A model generated the notes under the pieces. It saw nothing but the letters and a program-made list of their open reading frames with translations, was not told where the DNA came from and ran no database searches. Below, in pieces: positions 1,451-53,680 of a stretch of DNA of 55,048 nt. The position numbers and the translations under genes are program-made. The DNA is from a virus (lineage: Duplodnaviria; Heunggongvirae; Uroviricota; Caudoviricetes). Every line of letters begins with the position of its first letter. Positions within the stretch are counted from its first letter, which is position 1. Location: the IMG/VR virus record IMGVR_UViG_2541047910_000003, positions 1-55,048 of that record. One strand, 5' to 3'.

Positions 1451-1471
1451 AATGGTGCCGATAATAGGAGT
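1451..1471. repeat. att-site copy: 21 bp identical to 3' end of tRNA-Thr (aatggtgccgataataggagt), distal junction of element B
   Basis: Exact match to 53603-53623 and 13991-14011. Confidence 0.8.
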
Positions 1472-1557
1472 AAAACACTCGATTAATCTCGTGTTAATGC
1501 CATCACCTACGACCATTACTAATTGATTGAATCTTATAGAAAAAATCATCATTTTCT

Positions 1558-2892
1558 ATGCGTTACAATCAATTTTCACATTACAAACGCTCCGACACTT
1601 TAGCCGGGGAGTTTATGAGATACAAGCCCAATCAATACATAATCTGTGATTCTTACGGTAACTACTATTTGAGGATCACATTGCCTGTGTATATGCAGCC
1701 CTTTTTTGAAGGAAAAAGGACGTTTGTCAGGAGTCTACATACAAGTAATCTTCGTGTTGCACGTAGAAAGCGTGATCAGATTGCAGATGAATACCATTGC
1801 TTACGGGAGAGTGTCGCTCCTGTAAACAGCACAATAGAGAACACGCTGGAACTGTTACGAAGTAAGGCTAAATACGCCAAAACAGCTACCAGAATGCAAG
1901 ATACAGCGTCTTCGTGTCCGTCATTGCTTAAAATTCTTGAAATCTACCTGACAATTAACAGCACGAAGAAGAAGCCAGCCACTTTAGCTAAGGCAAGAAA
2001 AGCGGTAGAGATGTTTCTCTCCTACCGTAAAAAGCCTGATATTGCATTGCAAGATGTGAGCCGCACCACTGTTACAGGCTGGATTGAACACATGCAAAAA
2101 ACCCTTTCACAACAATCAATTGCAAATTATATCAGCCCAATGGCCCAGCTATGGGAGTTAGCTTCATCACGTTACCACGATGCGCCAGAAAGGGCGCTCT
2201 CCCCCTGGCGAGGGCATAGGCTTGATGTGGCACAAAGTAGAGAGAGCTACGAGGCATTTTCTAACAAAGAGCTATTGCAGGTGTTGCAAGTATTTTCCGG
2301 TAATTCAGCAGAAAACAAAGAAATGATGGCTTTGTGTCTTATCGGTTTATATACAGGTATGCGGATCAATGAGATAGCAAGTCTCACAATAGACGATGTG
2401 AAAGAGATCGAAGGTGTGCTGTGTTTTGAAATCACACAGGGAAAAACGAAAGCTGCGGCACGTGTTGTGCCTGTGCATAGCCTTATCACTCCGTTGGTGT
2501 TGTCGCTGCGTGAAAAGCCTCATAATGGCTTTTTGTTCTATCACGCCAGCATTACAGAGCGTGCTGATGGTAAACGCTCTACGTGGCACACGCAGAGATT
2601 TACAAGAGCTAAACGAAAGGCTTTAGGGGAAAAGGGAACAGAAAGGAAAGTGTTTCATTCTCTGAGACACGGAGTAGCACAGCTTCTTGATCGAAATCAA
2701 ATTCCAGAAGACAGGATCGCCCTTCTCCTGGGCCATACACGCGGCAATACAGAGACATTCCGCACATATAGCAAGAATGCAGCTTCTCCAGTAGAGCTTA
2801 AAAACTATATTGAGCTTCTACGCTACCCTGAAATAGAGAAAGGCTTATCAATCAATAAAAAATCAAATTTAAGGCGTAAAACAACGCCATAG
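1558..2892 (+). CDS. Tyrosine recombinase/integrase of element B
   Basis: C-terminal catalytic region with HSLRHGVAQLL...LLGHTRGNTETFRTYS (R..HxxR..Y pattern); adjacent to att copy. Confidence 0.85.
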   Translation: MRYNQFSHYKRSDTLAGEFMRYKPNQYIICDSYGNYYLRITLPVYMQPFFEGKRTFVRSLHTSNLRVARRKRDQIADEYHCLRESVAPVNSTIENTLELLRSKAKYAKTATRMQDTASSCPSLLKILEIYLTINSTKKKPATLAKARKAVEMFLSYRKKPDIALQDVSRTTVTGWIEHMQKTLSQQSIANYISPMAQLWELASSRYHDAPERALSPWRGHRLDVAQSRESYEAFSNKELLQVLQVFSGNSAENKEMMALCLIGLYTGMRINEIASLTIDDVKEIEGVLCFEITQGKTKAAARVVPVHSLITPLVLSLREKPHNGFLFYHASITERADGKRSTWHTQRFTRAKRKALGEKGTERKVFHSLRHGVAQLLDRNQIPEDRIALLLGHTRGNTETFRTYSKNAASPVELKNYIELLRYPEIEKGLSINKKSNLRRKTTP

Positions 2893-2973
2893 ACGCAATA
2901 AAGAGGCTTCAACATAGATTGGTAGCCTCTTTTATAATTACATCGTTACAGAGCGTTTTAGAGGCGTTTACGG

Positions 2974-3687
2974 CTATTCCTGTTTAAAGGCAGGCGTAAT
3001 AGTGTCTTCACCTTCACTACTTGATCTTTCAGCGTTAACACGTTTCTTCAAATTCGCCCCGATGTTCTTAGATGGCTGTGTTTTGATAGCTACAGTGTTT
3101 ACAGTGCCATAAGACACTAATCTGATCTGTTCAAATTCCAAATCAAATACCAGGGATTCGCTTGCCTCTTCTGTGTATTCGATGCCTGTTAAAACAACGT
3201 TCTCAAAAGTTTTATTTTCTGTAACAAGAAGAAAAGGCTGTCTACTGTCCATAATCTGATTCAGATAATCTATAGCCAATGATCTTCTGTTCCCGTTCAC
3301 CCCTGCACTCTTTAACAAGCCAGGATCGCTTTTAATCGGTGTTTCAGTGATCCTTCCTTTAAGAGAAAACTTATTGTTTTTAATTTGAACGTGATCAGAC
3401 ACAGTAGCACCATTCTCTACGGGGTAGCTTGTGACATCTGCCGAACGTCTCACGTTCACATCGTCTACACTGTCAAAGGCCAGCGCCATATAATTTTCAT
3501 AAACGTCATTGCCAGAAGATGCCAAGCCACTGGTAACAATAGCAAACCCATTTTCTCCTTTTGTTTTATTGGCTTTGCTATTTTCGTTTTTTGTAGAGTT
3601 TATATCTTGTTCTGCTTTGTAAACAGCCTGAACGTGTTGTTCTGGAGTATTTGCTGCACGTATGGTTAAAATTCCCGCCGTTGCCAT
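2974..3687 (-). CDS. Hypothetical protein, last gene of structural-like minus-strand operon of element B
   Basis: 237-aa ORF tightly following the 611-aa ORF; no recognisable motif. Confidence 0.4.
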   Translation of the reverse strand: MATAGILTIRAANTPEQHVQAVYKAEQDINSTKNENSKANKTKGENGFAIVTSGLASSGNDVYENYMALAFDSVDDVNVRRSADVTSYPVENGATVSDHVQIKNNKFSLKGRITETPIKSDPGLLKSAGVNGNRRSLAIDYLNQIMDSRQPFLLVTENKTFENVVLTGIEYTEEASESLVFDLEFEQIRLVSYGTVNTVAIKTQPSKNIGANLKKRVNAERSSSEGEDTITPAFKQE

Positions 3688-3717
3688 AATAATTTCCTTG
3701 TAATGTTATGGCGGGAA

Positions 3718-5553
3718 TTACCCGCCGTTGGATTGTCCTGATAAGCTGGTTAATGTTAATGATTTCAAGAAGCTATCCCGACTTGCTCTCGCTGTAAAAT
3801 CCACATAATCGCTTAATCTTGATGTGTCAGAATTAATAGTAAGAGGAACCTCTGTTACCACTTCAAATGTAGGATTCAGATTAAACACAGGAGATAAATT
3901 ATAAGCTGGAGTTGTCATTGTAAGATTATTTAAAGCACCCTGTTTGAGATTGGTTATCGGTGCTTCGCTGACTGACATTTTTACATCTGACACAGAAGAA
4001 GCATTATCATCGAAAAGCCATCCCTTAATTGTGTTAAAAAGAGAATGACTATTATCAGGTGTAGTTGTTGCAGTTCCAGCGCCTTTATATTGGTCAGGAA
4101 CGAGATTAGAAAGATGCTGTTTCATCCCTTCATTGCTTAATGGCGGTGCATCTCCCATATTTTTCTGAATAGCATCTGTCTTATCATCATTACGATTAAA
4201 CCAGTTTACAATCTTCATAATGGCCTCAAAGAGACTTCCTGTAGCTTCTCCCAGCTTCGTAAAATACGGAGTGAGATTAGAAAGGTTTTTCATAAACTCT
4301 TCCGTTACTTTTGGATCGAGAGATTTCATAAAGCCGTCTACAAATGCTACTTGTCTTGCATCAGAAAGCTGTGAAAGCTGTCTGTTTAGTTCTCTGAATT
4401 TAACAATAGATTCTTGCTGTGTTTCTGTTAGCCATTTTCCAGAGGCTTTTTGCTGATTAATACTTTCTTGTACATCTTTAACGGAACGTTGCCAATATTT
4501 TGATGTAAGCATCAAATCATCGCCCAGGTCTTCTAAACGTTGTCCAATTTGGGAGTCTGAAAACCCTTTTTTCATCATTCCATTAACAGCCTTAGAAATT
4601 AATCCGGCTGGATTATCAGCAAATTTTTTAAGGTCGCTCTTGTTAATAACACCGATGTTTAGAAGTTCATTAATAGCGTTATCACCGCCTTTCCACTCGC
4701 CGCCTTTACCAGTTTTTTTATCGACTACATATTCAGCTTCACTATAGGATTTTGCGGCACGTTCCCTAACATCTTTCATCTGATCCAGGTATTTCCTAGC
4801 CCCTTGATCACCCATCATAGAGTCAACGCCGTTTCTATACGCCCATTCTGTAATATTATACATCTGGTTAACGTCTACACCGCCAAGCCTTGCACGTTGG
4901 ATTAATTCTCCTTGTGTTTCAGCATTAGCGAAGCTATTAGCCATAAACTCGGCGGTTTTACTAACAGCCATCACGCCAGCAGCAGCCGTAGCGCCTCCAA
5001 ATAACAGAGCGCCCATAGTGGCGGAATTCCCTGATCCTCCCTTAACGGGGGCAAATTGAGCTTTTCTGTTGCCATTAATCTTACGTTGTTGTTGTTGTAA
5101 GCGTTTCATTTGGCTATTCATACGTGCAAGCGAGATAGCGCCTTGTTCGTATTGTTTCGCTATCTCTCTAGCCTGTGCAATAGCTTTATATTGTTCCGCT
5201 ACAGAGAGGCGGTGCATTGCACTTATAGAGCTTGACACATCAAGGAGTTTTAATTCTGCTTTCTCTTTACGTGCTGCTATTTGTGCCTGTTGCCTTGCCT
5301 GTGCTCTTGCTGCGGCAGCTTGTGCTCTTTGATTCTGTTTTTCGTTTTTCGCTTTCTGTTGAGCAATCTTATCTACTTCACTTTGTGCTTTCTTATAGCC
5401 TTTAGTGACATTATCAAATCTTAATTTAGCTGGCTTGATGTTCTCTGCGAATTCCTTTAAGCCTGTAATAGAGTCTTTCGCTTTTTTCAAGCTGTCTTTA
5501 TCTACACTAAATGTTACTGTGTTCTTAATTTTAGAAGTGTTAATTTCTAACAT
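3718..5553 (-). CDS. Large coiled-coil, Gly-rich hydrophobic protein (tape-measure/internal-virion/scaffold-like), function unknown
   Basis: 611 aa; long Q/A/K/R coiled-coil N-terminal region (QQKAKNEKQNQRAQAAAARAQARQQAQIAARKEK) then GGSGNSATMGALLFGGATAAAGVMAV segment; no NTPase motifs. Confidence 0.5.
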   Translation of the reverse strand: MLEINTSKIKNTVTFSVDKDSLKKAKDSITGLKEFAENIKPAKLRFDNVTKGYKKAQSEVDKIAQQKAKNEKQNQRAQAAAARAQARQQAQIAARKEKAELKLLDVSSSISAMHRLSVAEQYKAIAQAREIAKQYEQGAISLARMNSQMKRLQQQQRKINGNRKAQFAPVKGGSGNSATMGALLFGGATAAAGVMAVSKTAEFMANSFANAETQGELIQRARLGGVDVNQMYNITEWAYRNGVDSMMGDQGARKYLDQMKDVRERAAKSYSEAEYVVDKKTGKGGEWKGGDNAINELLNIGVINKSDLKKFADNPAGLISKAVNGMMKKGFSDSQIGQRLEDLGDDLMLTSKYWQRSVKDVQESINQQKASGKWLTETQQESIVKFRELNRQLSQLSDARQVAFVDGFMKSLDPKVTEEFMKNLSNLTPYFTKLGEATGSLFEAIMKIVNWFNRNDDKTDAIQKNMGDAPPLSNEGMKQHLSNLVPDQYKGAGTATTTPDNSHSLFNTIKGWLFDDNASSVSDVKMSVSEAPITNLKQGALNNLTMTTPAYNLSPVFNLNPTFEVVTEVPLTINSDTSRLSDYVDFTARASRDSFLKSLTLTSLSGQSNGG

Positions 5554-5772
5554 TTAAAACCCCCCCTTATTAATCATTTTACCACCTTCTTTACTTAAGA
5601 AATGGTGTAGAGCCTGATCAATACTCTCGTTTAGTCTGAACATACGGGCTTTTACGCCTTCATATGGAACATCTAAGAGAGAACAGAGATATTTCAGATT
5701 TAACAAGCCTCTAGAATCATTAGCATCTAAATGTACGTGTACACCATTTTTTGATTTCAAAATCACTTCCAT
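5554..5772 (-). CDS. Small hypothetical protein (72 aa) translationally abutting 611-aa ORF
   Basis: ORF stop abuts the downstream start at 5553. Confidence 0.35.
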   Translation of the reverse strand: MEVILKSKNGVHVHLDANDSRGLLNLKYLCSLLDVPYEGVKARMFRLNESIDQALHHFLSKEGGKMINKGGF

Positions 5773-5799
5773 ATTTTAATCACCTCTCAAAATTTAAAA

Positions 5800-5842
5800 A
5801 TAAATAAAAAAAGGCGAAGCGTGAATACACGCCACGCCTCTA
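5800..5842 (-). terminator. Rho-independent terminator directly after capsid-like gene (GC hairpin then T7 run on minus strand)
   Basis: Minus strand: ggcgtggcgtgtattcacgcttcgcc followed by ttttttt. Confidence 0.6.
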
Positions 5843-5857
5843 TTACACGTTAAAATA

Positions 5858-6886
5858 TTATTTAACAGTGATTTGAACGGAGAAGCCTACACCGTGGTTT
5901 ACAACCATCTGGCTATTCTCTGTAACAACGTTAACAGCATCACCACGAGAAGATTCATAGCTGTAACTATACACCTCAGCAGGAGCGGCATTAATCAGTT
6001 CAAAGGTGCTGGAAGCCGCCCCATAGATGGCCTGGTAGACGTTAGAGAATTTAGCGAATTTAGGCACAGCTACAGCGTCTGCGGTCATATGTGCAAGGTG
6101 TAGCGGATCTACCAGTTTAACAACATCAATGTTAGTTCCTGGAATAGTGAACGCTGTCACTCCTGGTAGCAGGTCACGACGCTGATACACAACGTTCCCT
6201 TCTTCCAGTGGGCTTACATACTGGAATGCGTTTGCCATACCAGCAGAGAATCGAATTGCAGAGAAGGCTTCCGGCTTACAGAAAACAACAATACGCTCTA
6301 CAGCAGCCGCCTGGCTTTGTGCTTTTTCGATAATGTCAGTAGCAATCTGATCAAATTCTTTAAAAATCTTCGTGGTGTCAGTGCTGGAAGCGTTCACAGT
6401 GGCTTTCATAGCTGATACGTTAAACAGCTTGCCCCACTCAATTAACACATCATCAGTTTTAGGCGTGTAAGTTTTGCCAGAGAACAAAGAAGCAGCCAAT
6501 ACGCTCTCTTTTGTACGCTGGAATGCAACATTGTGTTTAGCAACATATTCCGCGTAGATATCAGTGAGTGTTTCCTGGAAATCAGTGCCAGGTTTACGTT
6601 TGCCTTGAACATCAGAAGGACGGATCACATCTTCACGCAGGAAGTAAGGGATCTCGATCAGCCATTCTTTACCTTGTTCTCGCTTAGTAACATTGTGTTC
6701 AGAAGAGAAACGAGAGGTTTCTTTGTTGAACAGAGATTCGTTGCTTTCGACAAGCTGGGAAACAGCTACTTTATGAGATGTAACCCCTACAGAATCCGTA
6801 AAATCAAGGGTAGAAAGCAGATAATTTCTAGTGCTATGCGCAGAGAACAGAGGAGCTAAATCAACGTAATCATTACCTAGAATCAT
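5858..6886 (-). CDS. Major capsid protein homologue, T7 gp10-like
   Basis: 342 aa; segment VERIVVFCKPEAFSAIRFSAGMANAFQYVSPLEEG resembles T7 gp10A PAADRVFYCDPDSYSAILAALMPNAANYAALIDPEKG; size matches gp10A (345 aa); terminator immediately downstream as in T7. Confidence 0.5.
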   Translation of the reverse strand: MILGNDYVDLAPLFSAHSTRNYLLSTLDFTDSVGVTSHKVAVSQLVESNESLFNKETSRFSSEHNVTKREQGKEWLIEIPYFLREDVIRPSDVQGKRKPGTDFQETLTDIYAEYVAKHNVAFQRTKESVLAASLFSGKTYTPKTDDVLIEWGKLFNVSAMKATVNASSTDTTKIFKEFDQIATDIIEKAQSQAAAVERIVVFCKPEAFSAIRFSAGMANAFQYVSPLEEGNVVYQRRDLLPGVTAFTIPGTNIDVVKLVDPLHLAHMTADAVAVPKFAKFSNVYQAIYGAASSTFELINAAPAEVYSYSYESSRGDAVNVVTENSQMVVNHGVGFSVQITVK

Positions 6887-6904
6887 TTATTATTATTCCT
6901 TTTA

Positions 6905-7267
6905 TTAAGAAGTGAAAACAGAATGGAACCCTTCAAGCTGGAAGCCTTTTTTAATTAATGCTGTTTTTGCTGCTTCACTTACAGCATTCAGGGCATCAGC
7001 TTTAATGCATACAAGCCCAGCATTGCTACGTAAAACATCTACAGGCTTGTTGTCTCCAGCCGTTACAAATTCACTCATAACAACATAGATATCATCTCCT
7101 GATACATATTTAGCGCCCGTGCTGGTGATCAAGTCGCCGCACTCAACATCAGCAGGAAGAGAAGCAAAAACCTTGCTTTCTACAGAGGCAAACGGATCAG
7201 TACAATAACTTACAATATCTGTGAAAGTCTTTCTAACTGGAAACAGAGTGTCTAAATCAATAATCAT
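6905..7267 (-). CDS. Hypothetical 120-aa protein upstream of capsid gene (possible scaffold/decoration)
   Basis: Position and size only. Confidence 0.4.
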   Translation of the reverse strand: MIIDLDTLFPVRKTFTDIVSYCTDPFASVESKVFASLPADVECGDLITSTGAKYVSGDDIYVVMSEFVTAGDNKPVDVLRSNAGLVCIKADALNAVSEAAKTALIKKGFQLEGFHSVFTS

Positions 7268-7476
7268 TTAGTAATCTCCTTAGCTTTTAATTTGATTAAT
7301 TCATTAATGGAAGGTGTAGACGGAGAAGAAGGAGAAAAATATTTTTCAACACATCGTTCTACGTCCTCTACAGAACACCCAGCGTATTTAGCTACCATTT
7401 CGGTAATTTGTGGATTAATTTTCAGCATTTCATCTTTATACTTGATGATTTGCTCTTTATCATTTAAGAACAACAT
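7264..7476 (-). CDS. Hypothetical 70-aa protein
   Basis: ORF overlapping start of downstream gene by 4 nt. Confidence 0.35.
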   Translation of the reverse strand: MLFLNDKEQIIKYKDEMLKINPQITEMVAKYAGCSVEDVERCVEKYFSPSSPSTPSINELIKLKAKEITK

Positions 7477-7806
7477 TTATATAAACCTTGTTACCTTGTT
7501 TAAAGTAAGAAATACAACTTTTAAGTTGCATAACGGGCAAAATAAAAGGCAGCATTTAAAGCCGCCTTTGTAATTACCCTATGTTATGCACACTCCAAGA
7601 TGTATGCATAACAAAGGAAAAAAGAGGTATAATGACACAGTATTACTTAAGGAGGAGAAGCGGGGAGCGGAGATTTTACTCCCCTTTAACGACAAGAAGA
7701 ATTTTTAATATCGAACCAATAAAGGAAAAATAATAACCCTATATAATTATATTAACATACAATATATGAAATGTCAAGATATTTTACAACTTTTTTGTTG
7801 CTTTTT

Positions 7807-8172
7807 TTATTCTTCTGTGATAGTAGCGCCTAAGCGTTGAGCTAGTTCAACAAGTCCATCTCCTACATAGCGAACATCAGAGTCGATATCTTCTATCCAG
7901 TTTGATAGCTCCCATAGCTGAGAGGCTGTCAGGTATGCGTTCTCACGCTTACAGAGCATCTCTACACGCTTAGAGAGGTGCTCAAAGGCATTCACAGCTA
8001 AATCCCAGTGTTTAAACGCCTCATTTAGTGCCGCTGGCGTGTTTTCTTTGTATGCTTCAAGTTCAGCGCGGTTTAAAGGCAGGAGGTAATCATCCTCATA
8101 ATAATTAATTAGTGAGTAAATTGTGTCATACGTGTTTTTGTTCATATTAAAAGTCTCCATAGTGATCAGCAT
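7807..8172 (-). CDS. Hypothetical 121-aa protein
   Basis: ORF in operon context. Confidence 0.4.
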   Translation of the reverse strand: MLITMETFNMNKNTYDTIYSLINYYEDDYLLPLNRAELEAYKENTPAALNEAFKHWDLAVNAFEHLSKRVEMLCKRENAYLTASQLWELSNWIEDIDSDVRYVGDGLVELAQRLGATITEE

Positions 8173-8557
8173 TATCTAAAATTTGAAAGTCTGGAACTAA
8201 ATTATTTAGGCCATTGGTGGCGAGATAACCAACGTAGTGGTTATAGTCTTCAAATCCTAAAATCTGGTATTTGCGTAAATCAGAGCTATCAACAATATAC
8301 TCTTTTCTTTTTCTAGGTTTCCAGAATACGCCAGGTGTTGAAGATAAGATTTCTTGTAAGGCGTTAAATTCATCTCCACAAGGCACAGAGGGAGAATGTT
8401 CTATGATCTCTGTTTTCCATTCGCCAGGGGCGCTATTATGCTTGGTGAGCGTAACTAGCTCTTTAAAGTCTTTGCGTCTTAGAATAGATTTAGGTTTACT
8501 TAGAAGAGAAGCTGAATCACCGATTTTCTTAACAACGTTGTTTTTTCTTTTTGCCAT
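8147..8557 (-). CDS. Hypothetical protein with strongly basic N-terminus (MAKRKNNVVKKIG), possible DNA-binding/internal protein
   Basis: 136 aa ORF. Confidence 0.4.
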   Translation of the reverse strand: MAKRKNNVVKKIGDSASLLSKPKSILRRKDFKELVTLTKHNSAPGEWKTEIIEHSPSVPCGDEFNALQEILSSTPGVFWKPRKRKEYIVDSSDLRKYQILGFEDYNHYVGYLATNGLNNLVPDFQILDNADHYGDF

Positions 8558-8686
8558 TTATTTTTCCTTTTCTTTTAAAGGAAAACACCCCGAAATATGC
8601 TTCTAACGTGAGAAAGAACAATAACCAATACATAGCTACTATCATAATAATGTTTTCCTTTTATATTTTAATTACATAGAGAGATT

Positions 8687-8965
8687 TTAGAGAGTGGAAT
8701 AGATGAATTCTATTTCTTTATCTAGTCTTTTGAGATTGAATGTAGAGAAAGATAATTCTTTAATCTCTATAACACCGAAATTTGATAGCTGTTTCAGCCA
8801 GAATTTTAAACCAGCTTCAGAGCACCCTGCTCGATGTAACACATCGCTATATTTTAGCGGTGTTGGCTTTCCTTTATAGAGGTAAGCAAGTGTCTCGTAG
8901 ATGCGTTTTCCTGTGTCATTACACTGAATTCTGTCTACTTGATTTTTTACTAAATATTGAATCAT
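8687..8965 (-). CDS. Small winged-helix-like DNA-binding protein (92 aa)
   Basis: Helix-rich, basic; adjacent to Rep-like gene. Confidence 0.35.
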   Translation of the reverse strand: MIQYLVKNQVDRIQCNDTGKRIYETLAYLYKGKPTPLKYSDVLHRAGCSEAGLKFWLKQLSNFGVIEIKELSFSTFNLKRLDKEIEFIYSTL

Positions 8966-8976
8966 AACCCTCCTTA

Positions 8977-9708
8977 TTAAAATGGAATATCAAAGTCGTC
9001 ATATACATTTGGGTAATGCTTAGAAAAATATGCCTCAATACCATTTGGTCGTTTTAGCCCGTATCTACAAGCTAGTGAATTTGCAAACTCAATAAATGAT
9101 GCTCCTCCTGTTCGTGTGTGTTTCTCCTGGATGATAAGAGAGGCAAAATTCTCTAACACATCCTCCTCATTATCATTAGCTACCTTTTCACTTGATGAAA
9201 CAGGTGTTTCTTCCGTCTCCCACGGCAAAGGCGCATCCCAATCATCAAGAACATCAAAAGAAGGCTGTTTATGGCCTTTAGGTTGTTCCTGTGCTTCTTC
9301 TGCCTCAGAAAGATCAGAGAGTGATGATTCTCCTGGGGGAGTAATATGTGCATCTGTAAATGGTAATGCTTTATAGAGTGATGTTTGACCGTCCCGTGCC
9401 TCTACAGAAAGAACTCCCATATCAACAAACATATTTATAATATTGCGAACCTGGCGATCACTAACCATTCCAATATTAGCTAATGTTTTTTGAGTAGCGT
9501 AACATTCTTGCCCTTGTTCATTGAATCCAGCTATATAGCTATAGATTTCAACGGCTGGCAGTGTAGCGGTGTATTCATTACCAGATGGTGAATACCATTT
9601 TTTAAACATCTTCAACCATTGCTCAACAACTACATATTTTTGTTTACCATCTTTCTGATTTAGACATTTGGCTTTCGCTTCGGCAATTGTTTTGATATTT
9701 TTGATCAT
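8977..9708 (-). CDS. Putative replication initiator (N-terminal wHTH, acidic C-terminal region)
   Basis: 243 aa; HTH-like segment TQKTLANIGMVSDRQVRNIINMFVDMGVL; located next to iteron-rich region. Confidence 0.45.
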   Translation of the reverse strand: MIKNIKTIAEAKAKCLNQKDGKQKYVVVEQWLKMFKKWYSPSGNEYTATLPAVEIYSYIAGFNEQGQECYATQKTLANIGMVSDRQVRNIINMFVDMGVLSVEARDGQTSLYKALPFTDAHITPPGESSLSDLSEAEEAQEQPKGHKQPSFDVLDDWDAPLPWETEETPVSSSEKVANDNEEDVLENFASLIIQEKHTRTGGASFIEFANSLACRYGLKRPNGIEAYFSKHYPNVYDDFDIPF

Positions 9709-9832
9709 TTAGTTCCTCCTTTGTAAGGACTGTAATTAGTAGTTCATTAACAAGTTTTGGAATTGATTTCCCTTCTGCCTTTGCGCGATTTAACAACGCG
9801 TTATAAGTTGCAGAATCAAAATTAATATTCAT
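9644..9832 (-). CDS. Ribbon-helix-helix (Arc/CopG-like) DNA-binding protein
   Basis: MNINFDSATYNALLNRAKAEGKSIPKLVNELL is a classic RHH beta-strand + two helices. Confidence 0.5.
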   Translation of the reverse strand: MNINFDSATYNALLNRAKAEGKSIPKLVNELLITVLTKEELNDQKYQNNCRSESQMSKSERW

Positions 9833-9855
9833 TTGGTTTTCTCCTTCTCCTGTTA

Positions 9856-10038
9856 TTATTCTTTCTCTGCTTCTTTCTTACGCAGTTCATCAATAATCTT
9901 GAGTGCTTCATTGAAGCAAGCTGCTCGCTCTGGATAACCTCGACTCCTTGCCATATTACGATTCATTACTACTTGGTGGCGTGTAAGCTCACCTTCTTTA
10001 AATGCCTGTACGACGTGTTCCGGTGTAAACCATTTCAT
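9856..10038 (-). CDS. Hypothetical 60-aa protein, first gene of minus-strand operon
   Basis: ORF with upstream AT-rich promoter region. Confidence 0.35.
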   Translation of the reverse strand: MKWFTPEHVVQAFKEGELTRHQVVMNRNMARSRGYPERAACFNEALKIIDELRKKEAEKE

Positions 10039-29771: not shown

Positions 29772-30656
29772 TTATTCGATTTTTGCGCCGGGGCATAATT
29801 TGTTGAATTCGTCTTGTTTCGCATCAGCACCGCCACCACGTACTTCCGGCTCTGGCTTGATGGCTTTCTTTGGTTTTGGAGCAAGGCTTACCTGTTTGCT
29901 AATCTGCCCCAAGAGGAATGCTGCGCGAATTGGATCTGTCTCAGCGGCTACACGCTGGCGTAATTGCTGGCTCTTACCTAAGCCATAGGCGAGTAGTTCA
30001 GAGCCTTCGTCTGCACAGTGAATGATGATTTCCTGCTGAATTGGTGGTAGCTCACTAAGAACAATGGCTTCCATTTCCTGATAATCTTTCACAGGAAGTT
30101 TGGCTGCCCGTTGTTTATGCGCTTCTACCCTTTGCTGGAAACGCTGCTGGTATTCCTGTTGCTGACGTAGTTTTTGTTGCTGCTGCTGTTCGACACGGCC
30201 TTTTTTCTCATGCCAATCAGTCAATGCCTGTTCAAACGCCTGTTCGTCATAATCACACGACTCAAGAGTCGGTTTTGGTGGAATAGCGTCTGGTTGTGGT
30301 TGCTGATGTTCCGCAGGCTTGGCTAATGCTTCCTCAAGCTGGCGTCGCAACTCACGGTTTTCTTTCTGTGTTTCTTTGAAGCCTTTGCGAAGATCTTTCA
30401 CCCATTGCGGTGCAGGTTGCCCGTCAATGTGATCATCATCGTCAGCGTTAAGCTGAATTTCTTCATCACCAATACGCAAGGCGTAATCTTCTGGTGTCTC
30501 TTCGGTTTTTTCAGGATCAGTTGCCATCTCTTTTCCGTTGTCATCCTGGCTTTCATTCTCAGGCTGTGACTCTGTTTGGATGATGGTTTCTTCTGCATTT
30601 TCCTGTGTTTCAGACAGGTCAATAACCTGACCGTCGATGATCAGTTCGTTTTCCAT
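29772..30656 (-). CDS. Scaffolding protein, P22 gp8-like
   Basis: 294 aa, acidic/Q-rich coiled coil, between portal and coat. Confidence 0.75.
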   Translation of the reverse strand: MENELIIDGQVIDLSETQENAEETIIQTESQPENESQDDNGKEMATDPEKTEETPEDYALRIGDEEIQLNADDDDHIDGQPAPQWVKDLRKGFKETQKENRELRRQLEEALAKPAEHQQPQPDAIPPKPTLESCDYDEQAFEQALTDWHEKKGRVEQQQQQKLRQQQEYQQRFQQRVEAHKQRAAKLPVKDYQEMEAIVLSELPPIQQEIIIHCADEGSELLAYGLGKSQQLRQRVAAETDPIRAAFLLGQISKQVSLAPKPKKAIKPEPEVRGGGADAKQDEFNKLCPGAKIE

Positions 30657-30669
30657 TGATTACTCCTGG

Positions 30670-32796: not shown

Positions 32797-32798
32797 GT

Positions 32799-34211
32799 TT
32801 ACCAACCGGAGGATGAGGGAACGTATATTTCTGTTTCTTCGCGGACCAATGCCGGGCAATGCATACACATCATCAGCGCATCAGCCAGGTTAGGAGATGG
32901 AATACCGAGCTTCTGCTTCATTTCGACCTTAGTCATAAGCTCCAGCTTCCCGTTATTATTGAATTTGCGCTGAATCTGCGTCAGTTCTGCAAACAGCTTC
33001 TCCAGCATCTTCTCGCCTATCGCTTCTTTGTCGAAACTCAGCATGTCGTCTGGGTCTGCATACTCACCGTGAACAACCGCCCGATATGTCAGATACAGCC
33101 TGTCAGCCAGCGCGTAATAGAATTGTGCTCGCTTATTGCGGAACACATCGCCAATAGTGCGAACGTTGTCACCCTGTACGACTTCATCAGCCCATGCTCC
33201 GGCCTGATACGGCGCATCTTCATCGAATGGCGATTCACTGCCCTTGAACATCGTGGCGGTGATTTTCTTGCCGGAGAACGCTTCCGTTGTCTGTCTGCGT
33301 AGCCCCGCACCGACGCCATCACCATCCCACAGGTAATGGTCAGCGCCGTCTTCAATCGCCAGCGAAGTTGCCCAGTCAGCACCTTCATTGATGTCCATCA
33401 GCAGGCCTTCGGCAATGCGCTTAACTACCGAACCGTGGCGCGATGCATAACCTTTAGCATCCGGTCCTGTATCTGACGGGTCATGCGCAGAGACAACAGC
33501 GCCTTTCGCCTTCCATCCGAGTTTCTTGTGCGCATCGGTTGCGGCTTCAAGCCATTCACGTTTGATGATTGCCATATCACTTGCGCTCACTGGCTCACCA
33601 AGCCAGATGTGACGATACAGTGTCGGATTTCTGCGTTTACACTCTTCCATCTCCAGACGGAGAACTTCAGGAAAGTGCGGGTTGTCGGTGTAGTTCACCG
33701 TCAGCAGACAAATATCATCAGGAGGGTTTACTACGAATCGCTGATAGGTATCGTCGAGGATGTTCTTCGGGTTAAAGCTCACCCATATTTCAGAGAACGG
33801 CTTACGGATGGTTGGGATCAGGATATCCCACGATTCCTTTGTTACCGCTTCCGCTTCTTCCACCCAGCAGATATCAATGCCTTCGAGCGATTTAATCTTC
33901 GTCGGGTTGTTTTTTATGCCGTAGAACATGAATTCAGCATTCGTTCCGAGATGACGAATCATTGAACGCTGAATTTCAAACTCAGCCGAATATCCTTCAC
34001 GCTCGATGGTGTCTTCAAGCAGCCGGATTACCGAATCGCTGATACTGTTTTGCAGTTCACGAGCACAGAGGATGCGCACAGGCTGCCGACGCGCCGCTTC
34101 AACAAGCAGCCTCGCAATTGCCCATGACTTACCGCTACCTCGACCGCCTTTGGCGACTTTGTAGCGATGCGCCTCAATGAACGGTTCAAAGATAGGATTA
34201 ATCGAGGTCAT
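32799..34211 (-). CDS. Terminase large subunit
   Basis: Walker A KGGRGSGKSWAIA; 470 aa; upstream of portal. Confidence 0.9.
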   Translation of the reverse strand: MTSINPIFEPFIEAHRYKVAKGGRGSGKSWAIARLLVEAARRQPVRILCARELQNSISDSVIRLLEDTIEREGYSAEFEIQRSMIRHLGTNAEFMFYGIKNNPTKIKSLEGIDICWVEEAEAVTKESWDILIPTIRKPFSEIWVSFNPKNILDDTYQRFVVNPPDDICLLTVNYTDNPHFPEVLRLEMEECKRRNPTLYRHIWLGEPVSASDMAIIKREWLEAATDAHKKLGWKAKGAVVSAHDPSDTGPDAKGYASRHGSVVKRIAEGLLMDINEGADWATSLAIEDGADHYLWDGDGVGAGLRRQTTEAFSGKKITATMFKGSESPFDEDAPYQAGAWADEVVQGDNVRTIGDVFRNKRAQFYYALADRLYLTYRAVVHGEYADPDDMLSFDKEAIGEKMLEKLFAELTQIQRKFNNNGKLELMTKVEMKQKLGIPSPNLADALMMCMHCPALVREETEIYVPSSSGW

Positions 34212-34648
34212 TTTCCGAACAGAGTGCTCATCGGTGATGTTTCAATCTGGATTGCGCCGCCGTCTTTGCCTGTTAGCTCGTGATCAACCTTGTCGCGCCA
34301 TTTATCCTTCTGTCGGTTCTTAAGCCAGAAAATGGCAGCGGTTGTATCAGGCGGGTAATACTTCTCAAGCGGAGTTTCGACAATTCTGTTTTCAATAACA
34401 CGAATATCGATATCTGGAGCCACGAAGCCCATAGCGCGTTGATAAAGACGATCACTAACTTCTGCATCAGCGACGGCCTTACCCTTTTTTATGGACTCCG
34501 AAAACTTAGGATAATCAAGCTTCCACTTGTTAATAGTTGACTCACTGACTTCAAAGAAATCAGCAAGCTCTGCATCGGTGTAGCCCAGCAAGCACAGTTT
34601 GCGTGCCTGTTCGGCGTACGCCTCTTGATACTTTGTTGGGCGCGCCAT
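34208..34648 (-). CDS. Terminase small subunit (Sf6/P22-like)
   Basis: 146 aa immediately upstream of TerL, overlapping stop/start. Confidence 0.65.
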   Translation of the reverse strand: MARPTKYQEAYAEQARKLCLLGYTDAELADFFEVSESTINKWKLDYPKFSESIKKGKAVADAEVSDRLYQRAMGFVAPDIDIRVIENRIVETPLEKYYPPDTTAAIFWLKNRQKDKWRDKVDHELTGKDGGAIQIETSPMSTLFGK

Positions 34649-37347: not shown

Positions 37348-37423
37348 TGGTGCTGGTTAACGGACTTGAACCGCTACCCATTCGCTTACAAGGCGACTGC
37401 TCTACCATTGGAGCTAAACCAGC
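37348..37423 (-). tRNA. Phage-borne tRNA, anticodon loop CTTGTAA (anticodon UGU, Thr) by manual fold
   Basis: 76 nt; acceptor GCTGGTT/AACCAGC, D arm GCTC..GAGC, T arm with GTTCAAGTC, terminal CCA encoded. Confidence 0.55.
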
Positions 37424-37428
37424 ATATT

Positions 37429-37502
37429 TGGCGGGACAGCGTGGACTCGAACCACGATAAGAAGGTTAACAGCCTTCCGTAATGACCTTTATACGACTGA
37501 CC
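37429..37502 (-). pseudogene. Degenerate tRNA-like sequence: intact anticodon arm (GAAGG-CTGTTAA-CCTTC, anticodon GUU), T arm and acceptor 3' strand + CCA, but disrupted 5' acceptor/D arm
   Basis: Manual fold; 5' half does not pair. Confidence 0.35.
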
Positions 37503-37510
37503 CAAATAAA

Positions 37511-37777: not shown

Positions 37778-38401
37778 CTAACGTGTGACCGCATTCAATA
37801 TGTTGTCTGCGATTGACTCTTCTTTGTGGCATTGCACCACCAGAGCGTCATACAGCGGCTTAACAGTGCGTGACCAGGTGGGTTGAGTAAGGTTTGGGAT
37901 TAGCATCGTTACAGCGCGATATGCGGCGCTTGCTGGCATTCTTGAATAGCCGACACCTTTGCATCTTCCGCACTCTTTCTCAACAACTCTCCCCCACTGC
38001 TCTGTTTTGGCTATATCAACCGCACGGCCTGTACCGTGGCAATCTCTGCATCTTGCGCCCGGCGTCGCGGCACTACGGCAATAATCCGCATAAGCGAATG
38101 TTGCGAGCACTTGCAGTACCTTTGCCTTAGTATTTCCTTCAAGCTTTGCCACACCACGGTATTTCCCCGATACCTTGTGTGCAAATTGCATCAGATAGTT
38201 GATAGCCTTTTGTTTGTCGTTCTGGCTGAGTTCGTGCTTACCACAGAATGCAGCCATTCCGAATCCGGCTTGTGATTGCGCCATCCCCATAGCAGCCATC
38301 ACATCAGTACCGGAAAGAGAGTCAGAAGCCGTAGCCCGTGGTGAGTCGCTCATCATCGGGCTTTTTGGCGAGTGAAATTTAGCTACGCTTTCGAGTCTCA
38401 T
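37778..38401 (-). CDS. Q: Late antiterminator Q (lambda Q type)
   Basis: 207 aa essentially identical to lambda Q (MRLESVAKFHSPKSPMMSDSPRATASDSLSGTDVMAAMGMAQSQAGFGM...). Confidence 0.9.
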   Translation of the reverse strand: MRLESVAKFHSPKSPMMSDSPRATASDSLSGTDVMAAMGMAQSQAGFGMAAFCGKHELSQNDKQKAINYLMQFAHKVSGKYRGVAKLEGNTKAKVLQVLATFAYADYCRSAATPGARCRDCHGTGRAVDIAKTEQWGRVVEKECGRCKGVGYSRMPASAAYRAVTMLIPNLTQPTWSRTVKPLYDALVVQCHKEESIADNILNAVTR

Positions 38402-44499: not shown

Positions 44500-45150
44500 A
44501 TGAATACACAACTGATGGGTGAGCGTATTCGCGCTCGCAGAAAAGAACTCAAGATTAGGCAGGCTGCCCTTGGCAAGATGGTTGGCGTGTCTAATGTTGC
44601 TATTTCCCAATGGGAGCGATCTGAAACTGAGCCCAATGGCGAAAACCTATTGGCCTTAGCCAAGGCTTTGCAGTGCTCCCCTGATTACCTGTTGAAAGGA
44701 GAGGATAGTCTTTCAAACATTGCCTATCACAGCAGGCATGATCCAAGAGGTTCGTATCCTCTAATTAGTTGGGTAAGCGCAGGATGTTGGATGGAAGCTG
44801 TAGAGCCATATCATAGGCGTGCAATAGATAACTGGTACGACACAACGGTAGATTGTTCTGAAGACTCTTTTTGGCTCGACGTTAAAGGCGATTCAATGAC
44901 TGCCCCGGCAGGACTGAGTATTCCTGAGGGGATGATTATTCTCGTCGACCCAGAAGTCGAACCACGTAATGGAAAGCTGGTAGTCGCCAAACTTGAAGGA
45001 GAAAACGAGGCGACATTCAAAAAGTTAGTTATTGATGCCGGTAGAAAATTCCTGAAACCACTCAATCCACAATACCCAATGATTGAAATCAATGGGAACT
45101 GTAAAATCATTGGCGTTGTCGTTGATGCCAAGCTAGCAAACCTTCCTTAA
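44500..45150 (+). CDS. cI: CI repressor (HTH + LexA-like S24 peptidase autocleavage domain)
   Basis: N-terminal HTH LGKMVGVSNVAISQWE; C-terminal GDSM...K catalytic Ser/Lys pattern. Confidence 0.9.
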   Translation: MNTQLMGERIRARRKELKIRQAALGKMVGVSNVAISQWERSETEPNGENLLALAKALQCSPDYLLKGEDSLSNIAYHSRHDPRGSYPLISWVSAGCWMEAVEPYHRRAIDNWYDTTVDCSEDSFWLDVKGDSMTAPAGLSIPEGMIILVDPEVEPRNGKLVVAKLEGENEATFKKLVIDAGRKFLKPLNPQYPMIEINGNCKIIGVVVDAKLANLP

Positions 45151-49809: not shown

Positions 49810-50039
49810 GCATCCGAACTGAACATGGATTTGGTCCTTCAACAGTCGAAGTCGAATGGCTTGATGATTGCCCTAAGTGCCAGCACGGCAAAGCCAAGGT
49901 AACAGGATGGTCGGTAACCAAAGATTCTTTGTGGGCGGGTGATGAGGCCGTCTGTTCCAAATGCGGTCACAAAGGTGAAATCGATGCTGATGGAGAGAAT
50001 GCCTGGGTGGAATGGGACGAAATCGAGGAGGCACAATGA
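49806..50039 (+). CDS. Small zinc-ribbon protein (two CxxC pairs)
   Basis: CPKCQHG...CSKCGHKG. Confidence 0.5.
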   Translation: MSIRTEHGFGPSTVEVEWLDDCPKCQHGKAKVTGWSVTKDSLWAGDEAVCSKCGHKGEIDADGENAWVEWDEIEEAQ

Positions 50040-50572: not shown

Positions 50573-50573
50573 T

Positions 50574-50861: not shown

Positions 50862-50864
50862 CAC

Positions 50865-51389: not shown

Positions 51390-51576
51390 TGCCGCCAGTT
51401 AAAGTTGTGATTATCACTTTGGTGATGATAGTGATTGCGAGAATCATGTCTGGTGAAATTGGGTGGATATGGTAATGGCTAAGGCAGCAGCAGAGCGCAA
51501 CTAACAATCCTCGCATTCGCGGGGATTTCTTTTATCTGAACTCGCTACGGCGGGTTTTGTTTTATGGAGATGATAA

Positions 51577-51747
51577 ATGCACTTCCGAGTAACAGGTGAA
51601 TGGAATGGAGAGCCATTCAACAGGGTTATCGAAGCGGAGAACATCAACGACTGCTATGACCACTGGATGCTGTGGGCGCAGATAGCGCATGCAGACGTAA
51701 CCAATATTCGAATTGAAGAACTGAAAGAACACCAAGCCGCCTGATGG
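51577..51747 (+). CDS. Small hypothetical protein (56 aa) followed by terminator gccgcctgatggcggttttttt
   Basis: ORF below list cut-off; clear terminator 51733-51760. Confidence 0.35.
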
Positions 51748-51771
51748 CGGTTTTTTTATTGGAGACAAGAA

Positions 51772-52116
51772 ATGTCAGATTTGGCTATGAAGGTTTTGAA
51801 ATGGCAATCGACTGGCGATGTCGGCATCAGTAGCGCAACTCTTGCCTCAATCGCATGTGGACTGAAAAAGAATATCTATGGTCATCACTTCGGCGCTCCC
51901 CATGACGCAGCCGATTTCCGGCGATGCGTTGCGCTTGTCGAGCAGATTCCAGAAATCAGAGATTCATTCGACAAGGTTGCAAAGCGCGTTCCGGCATTCA
52001 AAGGAATCCTCAACGAATGGGATTCCCTCGTTGCTCTGTTGAAGTCTGAAATGAAGATACACGGAAACAAAGCACCAGAGACTTACAGAAGAATTAGCGA
52101 GTTACGCAAGGACTAA
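51772..52116 (+). CDS. Hypothetical protein adjacent to xis
   Basis: 114-aa ORF. Confidence 0.4.
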   Translation: MSDLAMKVLKWQSTGDVGISSATLASIACGLKKNIYGHHFGAPHDAADFRRCVALVEQIPEIRDSFDKVAKRVPAFKGILNEWDSLVALLKSEMKIHGNKAPETYRRISELRKD

Positions 52117-52205
52117 CCACAGCCTCACACTCGATGAGGCCTGTTCATTTCTCAAGATATCCAGACCTACCGCAATAATACCAACTCAATAAATGGAGAT
52201 TCCAA

Positions 52206-52553
52206 GTGGAAGAAGAAATCTTCACTCGTGAAGAGGCAGCATCGTATCTGAAGGTAGACAAAGGCACTATCACGCAGTGGATACGAAGTGGACGACTTCA
52301 GGCCGCAAAGATAAATCCAGATAAACCTAAAAGCCCATATCGCATTTGCAAGTCAGACTGCATTGCGGCGCTTAAGTCTGTAAGACACAATAGCGCGGTG
52401 AATGCGGTTGATGTGCAGGAGGTTAAAGCATGTCAATCAAACTACGCGGTGGCACGTGGCACTGTGATTTCGTCGCGCCAGATGGATCAAGAGTTAGACG
52501 CTCTCTTGAAACATCGGACAAAAGGCAAGCGCAAGAACTTCACGATCGTCTGA
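52206..52553 (+). CDS. xis: Excisionase-like HTH protein (AlpA/Xis family), overlaps int start
   Basis: REEAASYLKVDKGTITQWIRSGRL HTH. Confidence 0.6.
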   Translation: MEEEIFTREEAASYLKVDKGTITQWIRSGRLQAAKINPDKPKSPYRICKSDCIAALKSVRHNSAVNAVDVQEVKACQSNYAVARGTVISSRQMDQELDALLKHRTKGKRKNFTIV

Positions 52554-53590
52554 AAGCAGAAGCGTGGAGAGTAAAAAATCTCGGGGAATCACCGAAAAAG
52601 CTATTCAAGGAAGCCTGCATACGGTGGCTTCGTGAGAAATCGGATAAGAAGTCCATTGATGATGACAAGAGCATTATATCGTTCTGGATGTTGCACTTCA
52701 GAGAAACCATTCTCTCAGACATAACAACAGAAAAAATAATGGAGGCGGTAGACGGGATGGAAAACCGCCGCCATCGCCTGAACTGGGAAATGAGCCGGGA
52801 CAGGTGTTTGCGGCTTGGCAAGCCAGTGCCGGAGTATAAACCAAAGCTGGCAAGCAAAGGAACGAAGACGCGGCATCTGGCAATACTTCGCGCTATTCTC
52901 AATATGGCTGTTGAATGGGGATGGCTTGACAGGGCGCCCAAAATATCAACACCACGCGTTAAGAATGGACGCATTAGATGGCTTACAGAAGAGGAATCGA
53001 AGCGCCTGTTTGCAGAAATAGCTCCTCATTTCTTCCCTGTGGTCATGTTCGCAATAACTACAGGCCTTCGCCGTTCCAACGTTACAGACCTTGAGTGGTC
53101 ACAGGTCGATCTGGATAAGAAAATGGCATGGATGCACCCTGATGAAACAAAAGCTGGCAATGCGATCGGAGTTCCTCTTAACGAAACCGCATGCCAGATA
53201 TTAAGAAAACAGCAGGGGCTCCATAAGAGATGGGTATTTGTCCACACCAAACCTGCCTACCGAAGCGACGGAACAAAAACAGCTGCGGTAAGGAAGATGA
53301 GAACCGATAGCAACAAAGCATGGAAGGGAGCGTTAAAGCGGGCAGGCATTAGCAACTTCCGATTCCATGACCTGAGACACACCTGGGCAAGCTGGCTGGT
53401 TCAGTCCGGAGTCTCTCTTCTTGCACTTAAAGAGATGGGGGGATGGGAAACTCTCGAAATGGTTCAAAGATACGCTCACCTTTCAGCCGGGCATCTCACC
53501 GAGCACGCGAGCAAAATCGATGCGATTATAAGTCGCAATGGCACAAATACGGCACAAGAGGAGAACGTGGTTTACTTAAATGTTAGGTAA
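52430..53590 (+). CDS. int: Tyrosine integrase of prophage A, abutting thrW
   Basis: HDLRHTWASWLVQSG...LGGWETLEMVQRYAH catalytic motifs; stop 15 bp from tRNA 3' end. Confidence 0.9.
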   Translation: MSIKLRGGTWHCDFVAPDGSRVRRSLETSDKRQAQELHDRLKAEAWRVKNLGESPKKLFKEACIRWLREKSDKKSIDDDKSIISFWMLHFRETILSDITTEKIMEAVDGMENRRHRLNWEMSRDRCLRLGKPVPEYKPKLASKGTKTRHLAILRAILNMAVEWGWLDRAPKISTPRVKNGRIRWLTEEESKRLFAEIAPHFFPVVMFAITTGLRRSNVTDLEWSQVDLDKKMAWMHPDETKAGNAIGVPLNETACQILRKQQGLHKRWVFVHTKPAYRSDGTKTAAVRKMRTDSNKAWKGALKRAGISNFRFHDLRHTWASWLVQSGVSLLALKEMGGWETLEMVQRYAHLSAGHLTEHASKIDAIISRNGTNTAQEENVVYLNVR

Positions 53591-53604
53591 CTTATTGATT
53601 TAAA

Positions 53605-53680
53605 TGGTGCCGATAATAGGAGTCGAACCTACGACCTTCGCATTACGAATGCGCTGCTCTACCAACTGAGCTATATCGGC
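53605..53680 (-). tRNA. thrW: tRNA-Thr (anticodon CGU), thrW; phage attachment site
   Basis: 76-nt cloverleaf, anticodon loop TTCGTAA; sequence matches E. coli thrW by recall. Confidence 0.9.

Follow-up and report, generated by a model that had tools for sequence, protein, structure and literature searches.

The window analysed here is a 55,048-bp stretch of DNA (IMG/VR virus record IMGVR_UViG_2541047910_000003) that contains thrW, a threonine tRNA gene of Escherichia coli. We read the region next to this gene as three unrelated integrative elements that have been inserted in tandem at the thrW 3' end, and we give this reading a probability of about 0.9. Counting away from the tRNA gene, the first unit would be a 39.6-kb P22-like prophage (14039-53650), whose integrase (Int) and excisionase (Xis) belong to the P22 family and use a core of 46(+2) nt. 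The second would be a 12.5-kb element (1451-14038) with a DUF6538-type integrase that uses only the last ~20 nt of the tRNA, and the third would be the proximal end of the vat island, which contains vatX and a truncated P4-type integrase and would hence have lost the ability to move by itself. The repeats, the unit boundaries, the reconstructed phage attachment site (attP) and the independent occurrence of the units elsewhere were observed directly.

In the proposed process, the attP of each element would contain a short core that is identical to a segment of the tRNA gene, and the integrase would recombine the two. The core copy of the incoming element would restore the tRNA, and the displaced copy would stay at the far end of the insert. 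The target site would remain usable, and older inserts would be pushed away from thrW.

The tRNA gene is predicted by ARAGORN, in agreement with Rfam, as a tRNA-Thr(CGT) on the minus strand, and it is identified as thrW because its right flank is proA. Base for base, it is the same as thrW of prophage-free genomes. A repeat search of the window found an exact 48-nt direct repeat (13991-14038 and 53603-53650), which comprises the last 46 nt of the tRNA-Thr and 2 nt (AA) past its 3' end, and a third copy of the thrW 3' end that is exact over 21 nt (1451-1471) and drops to background thereafter (65% across 48 nt). Exactly three occurrences of the 19-mer TGGTGCCGATAATAGGAGT are present in the window; 100 shuffles gave an expectation of 0.00. 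The junctions and the chromosomal flank are as follows.

1451-1471, plus strand: 21-bp copy of the thrW 3' end, marking the distal junction of the 12.5-kb element, at which the previous flank, the core and the element's arm follow one another
13991-14038, plus strand: 48-bp copy of the thrW 3' end, an exact repeat; genome matches to the 12.5-kb element stop at 14038
53603-53680, minus strand: intact thrW (tRNA at 53605-53680) with the prophage junction, formed by the 3' 46 nt plus 2 nt (53603-53650)
53795-55048, minus strand: conserved chromosomal flank, annotated proA, 99.5% identical to E. coli 536

The 48-bp copy plays a double role: with its first 21 nt it is the tRNA-side junction of the 12.5-kb element, and it is also the distal junction of the prophage. 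An earlier note on this DNA had claimed that the tRNA-Thr 3' end is present in three copies, the two displaced ones matching over 48 and 21 bp. Both matches proved to be exact, with the correction that the 48-bp copy ends at 14038 rather than 14040, and the spacings between the copies (12,540 bp and 39,612 bp) agree with the units of ~12.5 kb and ~39.5 kb that the note had described.

At related thrW loci the units are found separately and in other combinations, with breakpoints at exactly 1451, 1471 and 14038, and the breakpoints at the unit ends are exact across thousands of genomes. In GPEC1366 the 12.5-kb element is the sole insert between thrW and yagP/paoD; in 2015C-4498 it sits behind CP4-6; and in E10 it sits behind a P22-like prophage, with the vat island absent. 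CEA601S has the identical triple order with another variant of the prophage. In APEC O1 and TUM17543, the order is thrW, 12.5-kb element, 21-bp copy, Arm-domain integrase fragment, MarR gene, vat, insertion sequence (IS) IS1 and yagU, and window positions 1-14038 are ~96% identical to APEC O1, SF-468 and other strains.

To characterize the left junction, window positions 700-2200 were matched as a query against genomes, and three classes resulted. The first, with 71 genomes, contains the whole junction between the vat remnant and the 12.5-kb element. In the second, which comprises many genomes, the vat remnant lies against an intact thrW and the match stops exactly at 1471; in the third, also with many genomes, the left flank is a different one and the match starts exactly at 1451. 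These classes fit the pattern expected of a junction made of a previous flank, a core and an element arm, and a junction of this type was found at six other loci.

For the prophage, we rebuilt attP by joining window positions 53300-53650 to 14039-14400, and the first 565 bp of this construct gave an alignment with the free phage HK75. Positions 53300-53650 and 14039-14253 are together colinear with the HK75 attP, with 95.6% identity over 567 bp and straight across the join. The attP of P22 contains the identical 46 nt. The two arms are as follows.

14039-14253, plus strand: P' arm of the prophage attP, colinear with the HK75 attP; contains two arm-type-like motifs (14103, 14144)
53300-53602, plus strand: P arm of the prophage attP; one arm-type-like motif at 53538

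The motif ATGKCACAAAYA occurs in the window at these three positions only, all within the two arms and in the same orientation, and its copies are candidate arm-type Int sites. A related observation concerns the 'native' distal flank in strains without the vat island (L003:4940-5002, L004 and L005; yagP side), which is close to the P arm of a P22-type attP (…AAATGCGGCACAGGAGGAAACGTGG…TTGATTTT). Even the apparently simple thrW site would carry the scar of an older P22-type insertion.

Full-length tyrosine integrases are encoded at 1558-2892 and 52430-53590, both on the plus strand. Together with the P4-type fragment they represent three unrelated subfamilies, which show no more than remote similarity to each other in the catalytic domain; that each unit has its own tyrosine integrase, differently placed relative to its attachment (att) site, had been noticed before and holds. 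Sequential, independent integration at thrW, also proposed by the earlier note, is strongly supported by the combinations of units, the exact breakpoints, the HK75 attP match and the unrelated integrases.

The part of the window to the left of 1451 is the thrW-proximal end of the known vat island, whose distal end lies beyond the window. It contains two genes of interest.

31-525, plus strand: vatX, MarR-family regulator of the vat island (Pfam MarR, E=1.6e-9)
960-1298, minus strand: N-terminal fragment (112 amino acids) of a P4-type integrase (Pfam Arm-DNA-bind_3, E=9e-24); a pseudogene in RefSeq, with the C-terminus missing

The gene vatX has been described (PMC6592367). The MarR-family ORF ends at 525, and the extent 31-525 follows the annotation of homologous genomes. 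A MarR gene is annotated directly downstream of vat in APEC O1, TUM17543 and CEA601S; in every homologous genome fetched, vat lies immediately upstream of vatX, and it would fall to the left of position 1 here. The P4-type fragment is 86-91% identical to intact integrases that adjoin thrW in other genomes and is predicted to be the relic of the vat island's own integrase. An older remnant with a MarR gene and a P4-type int fragment had been suspected at this end; Pfam bears out both genes, and the remnant is present, its identity now refined to the proximal end of the vat island with its own distal end outside the window. The 21-bp copy belongs to the 12.5-kb element as its distal junction; it is not an att site of this remnant.

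The vat island has been placed between yagU and proA beside thrW (PMC6592367). This placement is matched by proA and thrW in the window and by yagU at the far side in TUM17543. For APEC O1, a single 20-kb island at thrW has been listed, at 295124-315041 (PMC7545054), and these coordinates take in both the vat segment and the 12.5-kb element; the catalogued ~20-kb thrW vat island is two units. Compared with the vat pathogenicity island (VAT-PAI; Parreira & Gyles 2003), as far as it is portrayed in PMC7545054, PMC9781279 and PMC6592367, the locus and vatX are the same. The differences are that a 21-bp att copy here separates two units, an independent element of 12.5 kb and a vat segment whose P4-type integrase is dead, and that the window adds the prophage and leaves vat itself outside.

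One could maintain instead that a single island (the ~20-22 kb 'VAT-PAI'), comprising the vat genes as well as the 12.5-kb element, was gained in one acquisition, with the prophage separate and the 21-bp copy an internal relic. The published listing of a single unit covering both parts and the junction shared by 71 genomes speak for this, but the 12.5-kb element is also found where vat is absent, bounded exactly at 1451, the vat remnant abuts an intact thrW without the element with the match stopping exactly at 1471, and the element has its own integrase and relatives at other tRNA genes. We consider a single acquisition very unlikely; within lineages, the vat island and the 12.5-kb element could spread together by recombination. 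That the three copies are chance similarities, or that the region is ancestral contiguous DNA or an assembly artefact, is practically out of the question and is refuted by the shuffles, by exact breakpoints in thousands of genomes with the same junctions in independent complete assemblies, and by the colinearity with the HK75 attP.

Returning to the tandem array, its insertion order is not deducible from the structure, because insertion of the 12.5-kb element into the distal att copy of the prophage gives the same map. The comparative data favour the order vat island, then 12.5-kb element, then prophage, since they provide a series that would lead from the vat remnant beside thrW through the vat island with the element to the triple array. 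Most copies of the 12.5-kb element have GATGG at their tRNA-side junction, which gives a 20-bp exact repeat; AATGG, a polymorphic variant, is found in E10, in several copies adjoining thrW and in this window.

Regarding excision, the attP core given in the P22 record is AGTCGAACCTACGACCTTCGCAT (23 bp), which overlaps the core of the 12.5-kb element by only 3 nt. Both att sites of the 12.5-kb element would still be intact after insertion of the prophage, and excision of the element would re-form the distal site of the prophage. The 21-bp copy cannot be used by the prophage Int, because the P22-type core shares only 3 nt with it. The earlier note had envisaged alternative excision products: the element alone, the prophage alone, or both together. 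As judged from the sequence, it is plausible that either unit can excise alone, and the joint product is doubtful. Joint excision would be unlikely, though possible, because the att copy beside thrW bears the arm of the prophage, not that of the 12.5-kb element, and the element's integrase would have to pair its distal site with this prophage-armed site. The joint circle, of ~52 kb, would be larger than the headful capacity of P22-type phages.

Several points weigh against the array model or limit what it explains. Either order of the 12.5-kb element and the prophage yields one and the same final structure, and an attempt to read the order from the A/G base at 13991 was rejected, as copies abutting thrW also carry A (100% matches). 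For this strain, the data inspected contained neither an excision product nor a circular form nor an empty site; the one Logan contig inspected (~12.1 kb) is an integrated copy broken at the tRNA repeats and not a circle. No excisionase was recognised by Pfam or PHROG among the scanned open reading frames (ORFs) of the 12.5-kb element. In addition, the whole block, or the vat island together with the 12.5-kb element, could have been acquired by homologous recombination of the flanks instead of by integration within this lineage.

The thrW-proximal prophage is intact-looking and of the P22-like (Lederbergvirus) type; it looks complete because a P22-type virion module, sar RNA, Ant, CI, Xis and Int are all present. 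Its main features are listed below.

14323-16401, minus strand: tailspike (PHROGs)
16502-17425, minus strand: antirepressor Ant (phrog_245)
17427-17493, plus strand: sar antisense RNA (Rfam sar; 77.7 bits, gathering score 43)
18260-20068, plus strand: group of three ORFs of low GC content, located between ant and the injection genes; two have matches among PHROGs of unassigned function
20093-34648, minus strand: virion module of P22/HK620/Sf6 type (injection proteins, needle, gp10/gp4, coat, scaffold, portal, terminase), annotated equivalently in E10
37348-37503, minus strand: phage tRNA-Thr(UGU) and tRNA-Asn(GUU), side by side (ARAGORN, Rfam)
44500-45150, plus strand: CI-type repressor (phrog_4, E=3.5e-64)
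52206-52553, plus strand: excisionase (PHROG, E=1e-52)
52430-53590, plus strand: prophage integrase (PHROG, E=2e-71), transcribed toward thrW

The region 14323-17493 is a P22-type immI region. The three low-GC ORFs look like accessory (moron) genes, and PADLOC found no defence match in them. The phage tRNAs are preceded by an ORF (37778-38401) in the late-antiterminator position and followed by the lysis-region ORFs. The PHROG search also identified RecT.

With P22, HK620, Sf6 and CUS-3 the prophage shares the same 46-nt tRNA-derived att segment, homologous Int and Xis, an int gene directed toward att, virion genes, immI and sar. It differs from these phages in its mosaic make-up, with structural genes like those of HK620/Sf6, an early region like that of HK022/mEp235 and an att-int region like that of HK75/mEpX2. 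In particular, the virion genes share ~95% of their nucleotides with HK620, Sf6 and vB_EcoP-611R6, the identity of the early region to HK022, mEp235 and Kapi1 is 97-98%, and Int and Xis have 54% and 42% identity, respectively, to those of P22. No phage record covers more than 52% of either of the two prophage parts that were searched.

The int-xis module (window positions 51746-53700) is 98% identical over 1958 bp to the thrW-proximal module of strain 536 (L038:4345-6301), a uropathogenic E. coli (UPEC). Pathogenicity island (PAI) III536 is listed at thrW, and the strain 536 module is within its published coordinates (PMC7545054). PAI III536 appears to use the integration module of a P22-family phage. 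The setting of the module beside thrW differs: in strain 536 it heads a 77-kb pathogenicity island, whereas here it belongs to a complete prophage.

The 12.5-kb element appears to be mobile in its own right and to belong to a tRNA-integrating family distributed across Enterobacterales. Its genes are all on the minus strand except those for the integrase and a resolvase. The features, in order from the distal att site, are as follows.

1558-2892, plus strand: tyrosine integrase (Pfam DUF6538, SAM-like and catalytic domains), directed inward from the distal att
2974-3687, minus strand: homologue of a tail tube initiator (Dit-like; Pfam Dit_like, E=4e-29; PDB phi92 gp135, E=3.6e-79)
3718-5553, minus strand: homologue of a tape-measure protein, 611 amino acids (phrog_16051, E=1e-53; PDB phi92 gp134, E=2.6e-39)
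5554-5772, minus strand: small conserved ORF just upstream of the tape-measure gene, with homologues in the related loci L022, L027 and L030
5858-6886, minus strand: major capsid protein with the HK97 fold, lambda-E type (Pfam Phage_cap_E, E=5e-15)
6905-7267, minus strand: conserved 120-amino-acid protein, kept in all family members examined
7477-7806, minus strand: leader of the capsid operon (330 bp), with a sigma70-like promoter (7777-7749), a leader of ~200 nt and an intrinsic terminator (7569-7545), followed by the first gene
7807-8965, minus strand: three conserved small genes (121, 136 and 92 amino acids), with homologues in L022 and L027
8977-9708, minus strand: replication-initiator-like protein (Pfam HTH_36; PHROG replication-initiation families, E=4e-8)
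10700-11460, no strand assigned: iteron-like tandem repeats (13 bp x5, 23 bp x3 and 18 bp x2.6) within a 2.1-kb non-coding stretch
12143-12682, plus strand: accessory serine resolvase/invertase (Pfam Resolvase, E=1e-33)

The core of this element is present in 531 of 5426 complete E. coli genomes (~10%), always on the chromosome and never on a plasmid, and some copies carry IS insertions or stop codons. The core gene order (integrase, tape-measure gene, small ORF, capsid gene, 120-amino-acid protein gene and onward) is kept in Klebsiella, Serratia, Citrobacter, Enterobacter and other genera, from Escherichia to Serratia down to 37% identity of the capsid protein. Three other members adjoin tRNA-Gly(CCC) or tRNA-Leu(CAA), and in members from Klebsiella and Buttiauxella direct repeats of tRNA genes (24 and 44 bp) bound units of 13.8-13.9 kb. 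A second, more divergent E. coli variant (L031, L043-L045), with a 120-amino-acid protein of ~70% identity, a tape-measure protein of 633 amino acids and a Dit-like protein of 218 amino acids, adjoins tRNA-Gly(CCC) in L031 and lies beside type III secretion genes on the Logan contigs L043 and L045, which reach into the flanking DNA. The matches to the element in IMG/VR look like prophage calls rather than virome reads, because they have UViG identifiers in the style of isolate genomes and contigs of 19-76 kb.

The genes of the element are under purifying selection, with ratios of nonsynonymous to synonymous substitution rates (dN/dS) of 0.02-0.2 at dS values of up to 0.26. The integrase, which is 56% and 34% identical to those of L022 and L027, respectively, has dN/dS of 0.02-0.12 against other copies; the corresponding values are 0.07-0.10 for the tube initiator and ~0.1 for the capsid protein.

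As to what the element does, we consider it slightly less than an even bet that it is a helper-dependent phage satellite of phi92-like myoviruses. The basis for this proposal is indirect, namely an incomplete set of virion genes together with homology to phi92-like structural proteins: three proteins of the element are homologous to phi92 gp135 (tube initiator), gp134 (tape-measure protein) and gp124 (capsid protein), whose roles were taken from PMC13450770. In this proposal the element would supply a small capsid of its own along with its tape-measure protein and tube initiator, and the helper would provide the rest of the virion. The phi92-like Stephanstirmvirinae are virulent myoviruses of ~148 kb. 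The wider claim, which we put forward only tentatively, is that an undescribed family of Enterobacterales satellites (~12-14 kb, tRNA-integrating, with genes for a capsid of their own, a tape-measure protein, a probable decoration protein and, in the E. coli members, a tube initiator) may parasitise virulent Stephanstirmvirinae of the phi92/phAPEC8 type and form small capsids with partly self-specified tails.

The similarity to phage proteins is unevenly distributed over these genes. The tube initiator has 54-61% amino acid identity to its counterparts in VEcB and phiWec188. The tape-measure protein matches 134 phage records, mostly Stephanstirmvirinae of ~145-150 kb; its N-terminal 41 amino acids have 61-71% identity to the phage proteins, and at the DNA level the gene starts with 87 nt that are 86% identical to VEcB. 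The small ORF at 5554-5772 occupies a position that parallels a small phage ORF (VEcB gp227). The capsid protein is 22% identical over its full length to those of phi92 (gp124) and VEcB. Beyond the three structural genes, no ORF of the element matches VEcB, of whose 147.7-kb genome ~125 kb was compared.

The 120-amino-acid protein is possibly a capsid decoration (cement) protein, albeit on weak indications. Its gene is in the position of the phage cement protein gene, and the top Foldseek matches of its AlphaFold2 model (pLDDT 67) are capsid decoration proteins (Sf14, 9c2d_O, probability 0.98, E 0.011; P21 SHP, 1td3); a comparison with the phage decoration protein by hhalign was negative. A 70-amino-acid protein is also encoded, listed beside the 120-amino-acid protein. 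The layout of a strong sigma70-like promoter, a leader and a terminator recurs in L022:4787-5521, L027:8845-9408 and L030:8795-9360 and so stands before the capsid operon of every family member examined, although the sequence is not conserved, and the leader of ~200 nt here compares with roughly 450-650 nt in these relatives. By analogy with lambda PR'-tR' or P4 immunity, this layout suggests that the capsid operon may be under antitermination control or may produce a terminated leader RNA.

The 121-, 136- and 92-amino-acid proteins have no match in Pfam, PHROG or PADLOC. The iteron-like repeats, which lie ~1-1.8 kb on the 5' side of the Rep-like gene, mark a probable replication origin of the element. 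The resolvase gene is present in L003 and L011 and absent from L002, L005 and others. Just after it, where copies with and without the resolvase diverge, a 30-bp stretch (12719-12748) matches the left end of VEcB (L025:318-347; 87%, E 0.009); this match may be a recombination site or due to chance.

Several negative results count against the satellite proposal. No portal, terminase, packaging gene or packaging signal was identified in the element, and no copy of it was found in the phage collection searched. PADLOC found no defence genes and Rfam no known RNA in the element. Literature searches gave nothing relevant on a satellite linked to Stephanstirmvirinae, Phapecoctavirus, phAPEC8 or thrW.

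We consider it unlikely that the element is what remains of a decaying prophage, or a gene cluster that has become fixed and domesticated, and not an active mobile element or satellite. Such a remnant could account for the small number of recognisable virion genes (three) and the lack of portal, terminase and lysis genes, for the IS insertions or stop codons in some copies, and for the failure to see a circular form in the Logan contig mentioned above. Decay is, however, hard to reconcile with the strong purifying selection on the integrase, capsid protein, tube initiator and 120-amino-acid protein despite the divergence at synonymous sites, with the gene order kept between distant genera, or with ends that are precisely bounded by att sites at several tRNA targets and in several flanking contexts.

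Equally doubtful is the idea that the element is chiefly an anti-phage island, in which diverged copies of the tape-measure protein, tube initiator and capsid protein poison the assembly of phi92-like phages, with transfer in particles secondary or absent. The identity of the tube initiator and of the tape-measure N-terminus to the phage proteins is high enough for co-assembly, and the structural genes are placed behind a promoter and a terminator. Known satellites do interfere with their helpers via assembly proteins. On the other hand, the element contains no defence domain known to PADLOC, and every family member has a complete capsid gene and a gene for a possible decoration protein, which is more easily explained by particle formation.

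The 12.5-kb element resembles satellite P4 and the capsid-forming phage-inducible chromosomal islands (cfPICIs) in being a tRNA-integrated element of ~12 kb with an integrase, a replication module, assembly genes and an incomplete virion set. In the SatelliteFinder definitions, the markers of PICIs are an AlpA-type regulator and a primase-replicase, and those of cfPICIs also include TerS, portal, protease and connectors. Among the scanned ORFs of the element, Pfam and PHROG gave no match to AlpA, primase-replicase, TerS, portal, protease or head-tail connectors, nor to the P4 markers Sid, Psu, Delta and alpha primase-helicase. Set against the PICI and cfPICI markers, what the searches did find was a capsid protein and the Rep-like HTH_36 protein. 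In contrast to these satellites, the element carries capsid, tape-measure and tube-initiator genes without their marker genes, and the relatives of these genes are in virulent myoviruses of ~148 kb, not in temperate helpers.

Tandem accretion of integrative elements at one att site is known (PMC5704250, PMC5812530, PMC13651849, PMC3146451), and the thrW array, which combines a known hotspot, a known island and a P22-like prophage, is an ordinary example of this kind; the family of the 12.5-kb element is apparently undescribed. Like the arrays of integrative and conjugative, integrative and mobilizable, and cis-mobilizable elements (ICE/IME/CIME), the phage-ICE arrays and the arrays at ssrA, it shows a shared target, a regenerated att site, internal att copies between the units and immobilised older units. 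It differs from them in that the recombinases are unrelated and use nearly non-overlapping parts of the tRNA end (21 nt against the 23-nt P22 core), so that cross-recognition and co-excision would be less likely than in arrays of related elements.

With the 12.5-kb element, E. coli would have its first satellite of a large lytic phage if the satellite proposal is true. Components for tail length and tube initiation would then be known from a satellite for the first time, which would extend satellite biology. As a satellite, the element could also affect the efficacy of phages of the phi92/phAPEC8 type, which are in development for phage therapy against extraintestinal pathogenic (ExPEC) and avian pathogenic (APEC) E. 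coli. The division of the thrW vat island into two units bears on island typing and on the use of vat-island presence as an epidemiological marker. More generally, the thrW array is a clean and fully delimited case of mobile DNA accumulating at one tRNA gene, in which the units would stay independently excisable because two integrases use adjacent, almost non-overlapping parts of the tRNA end.

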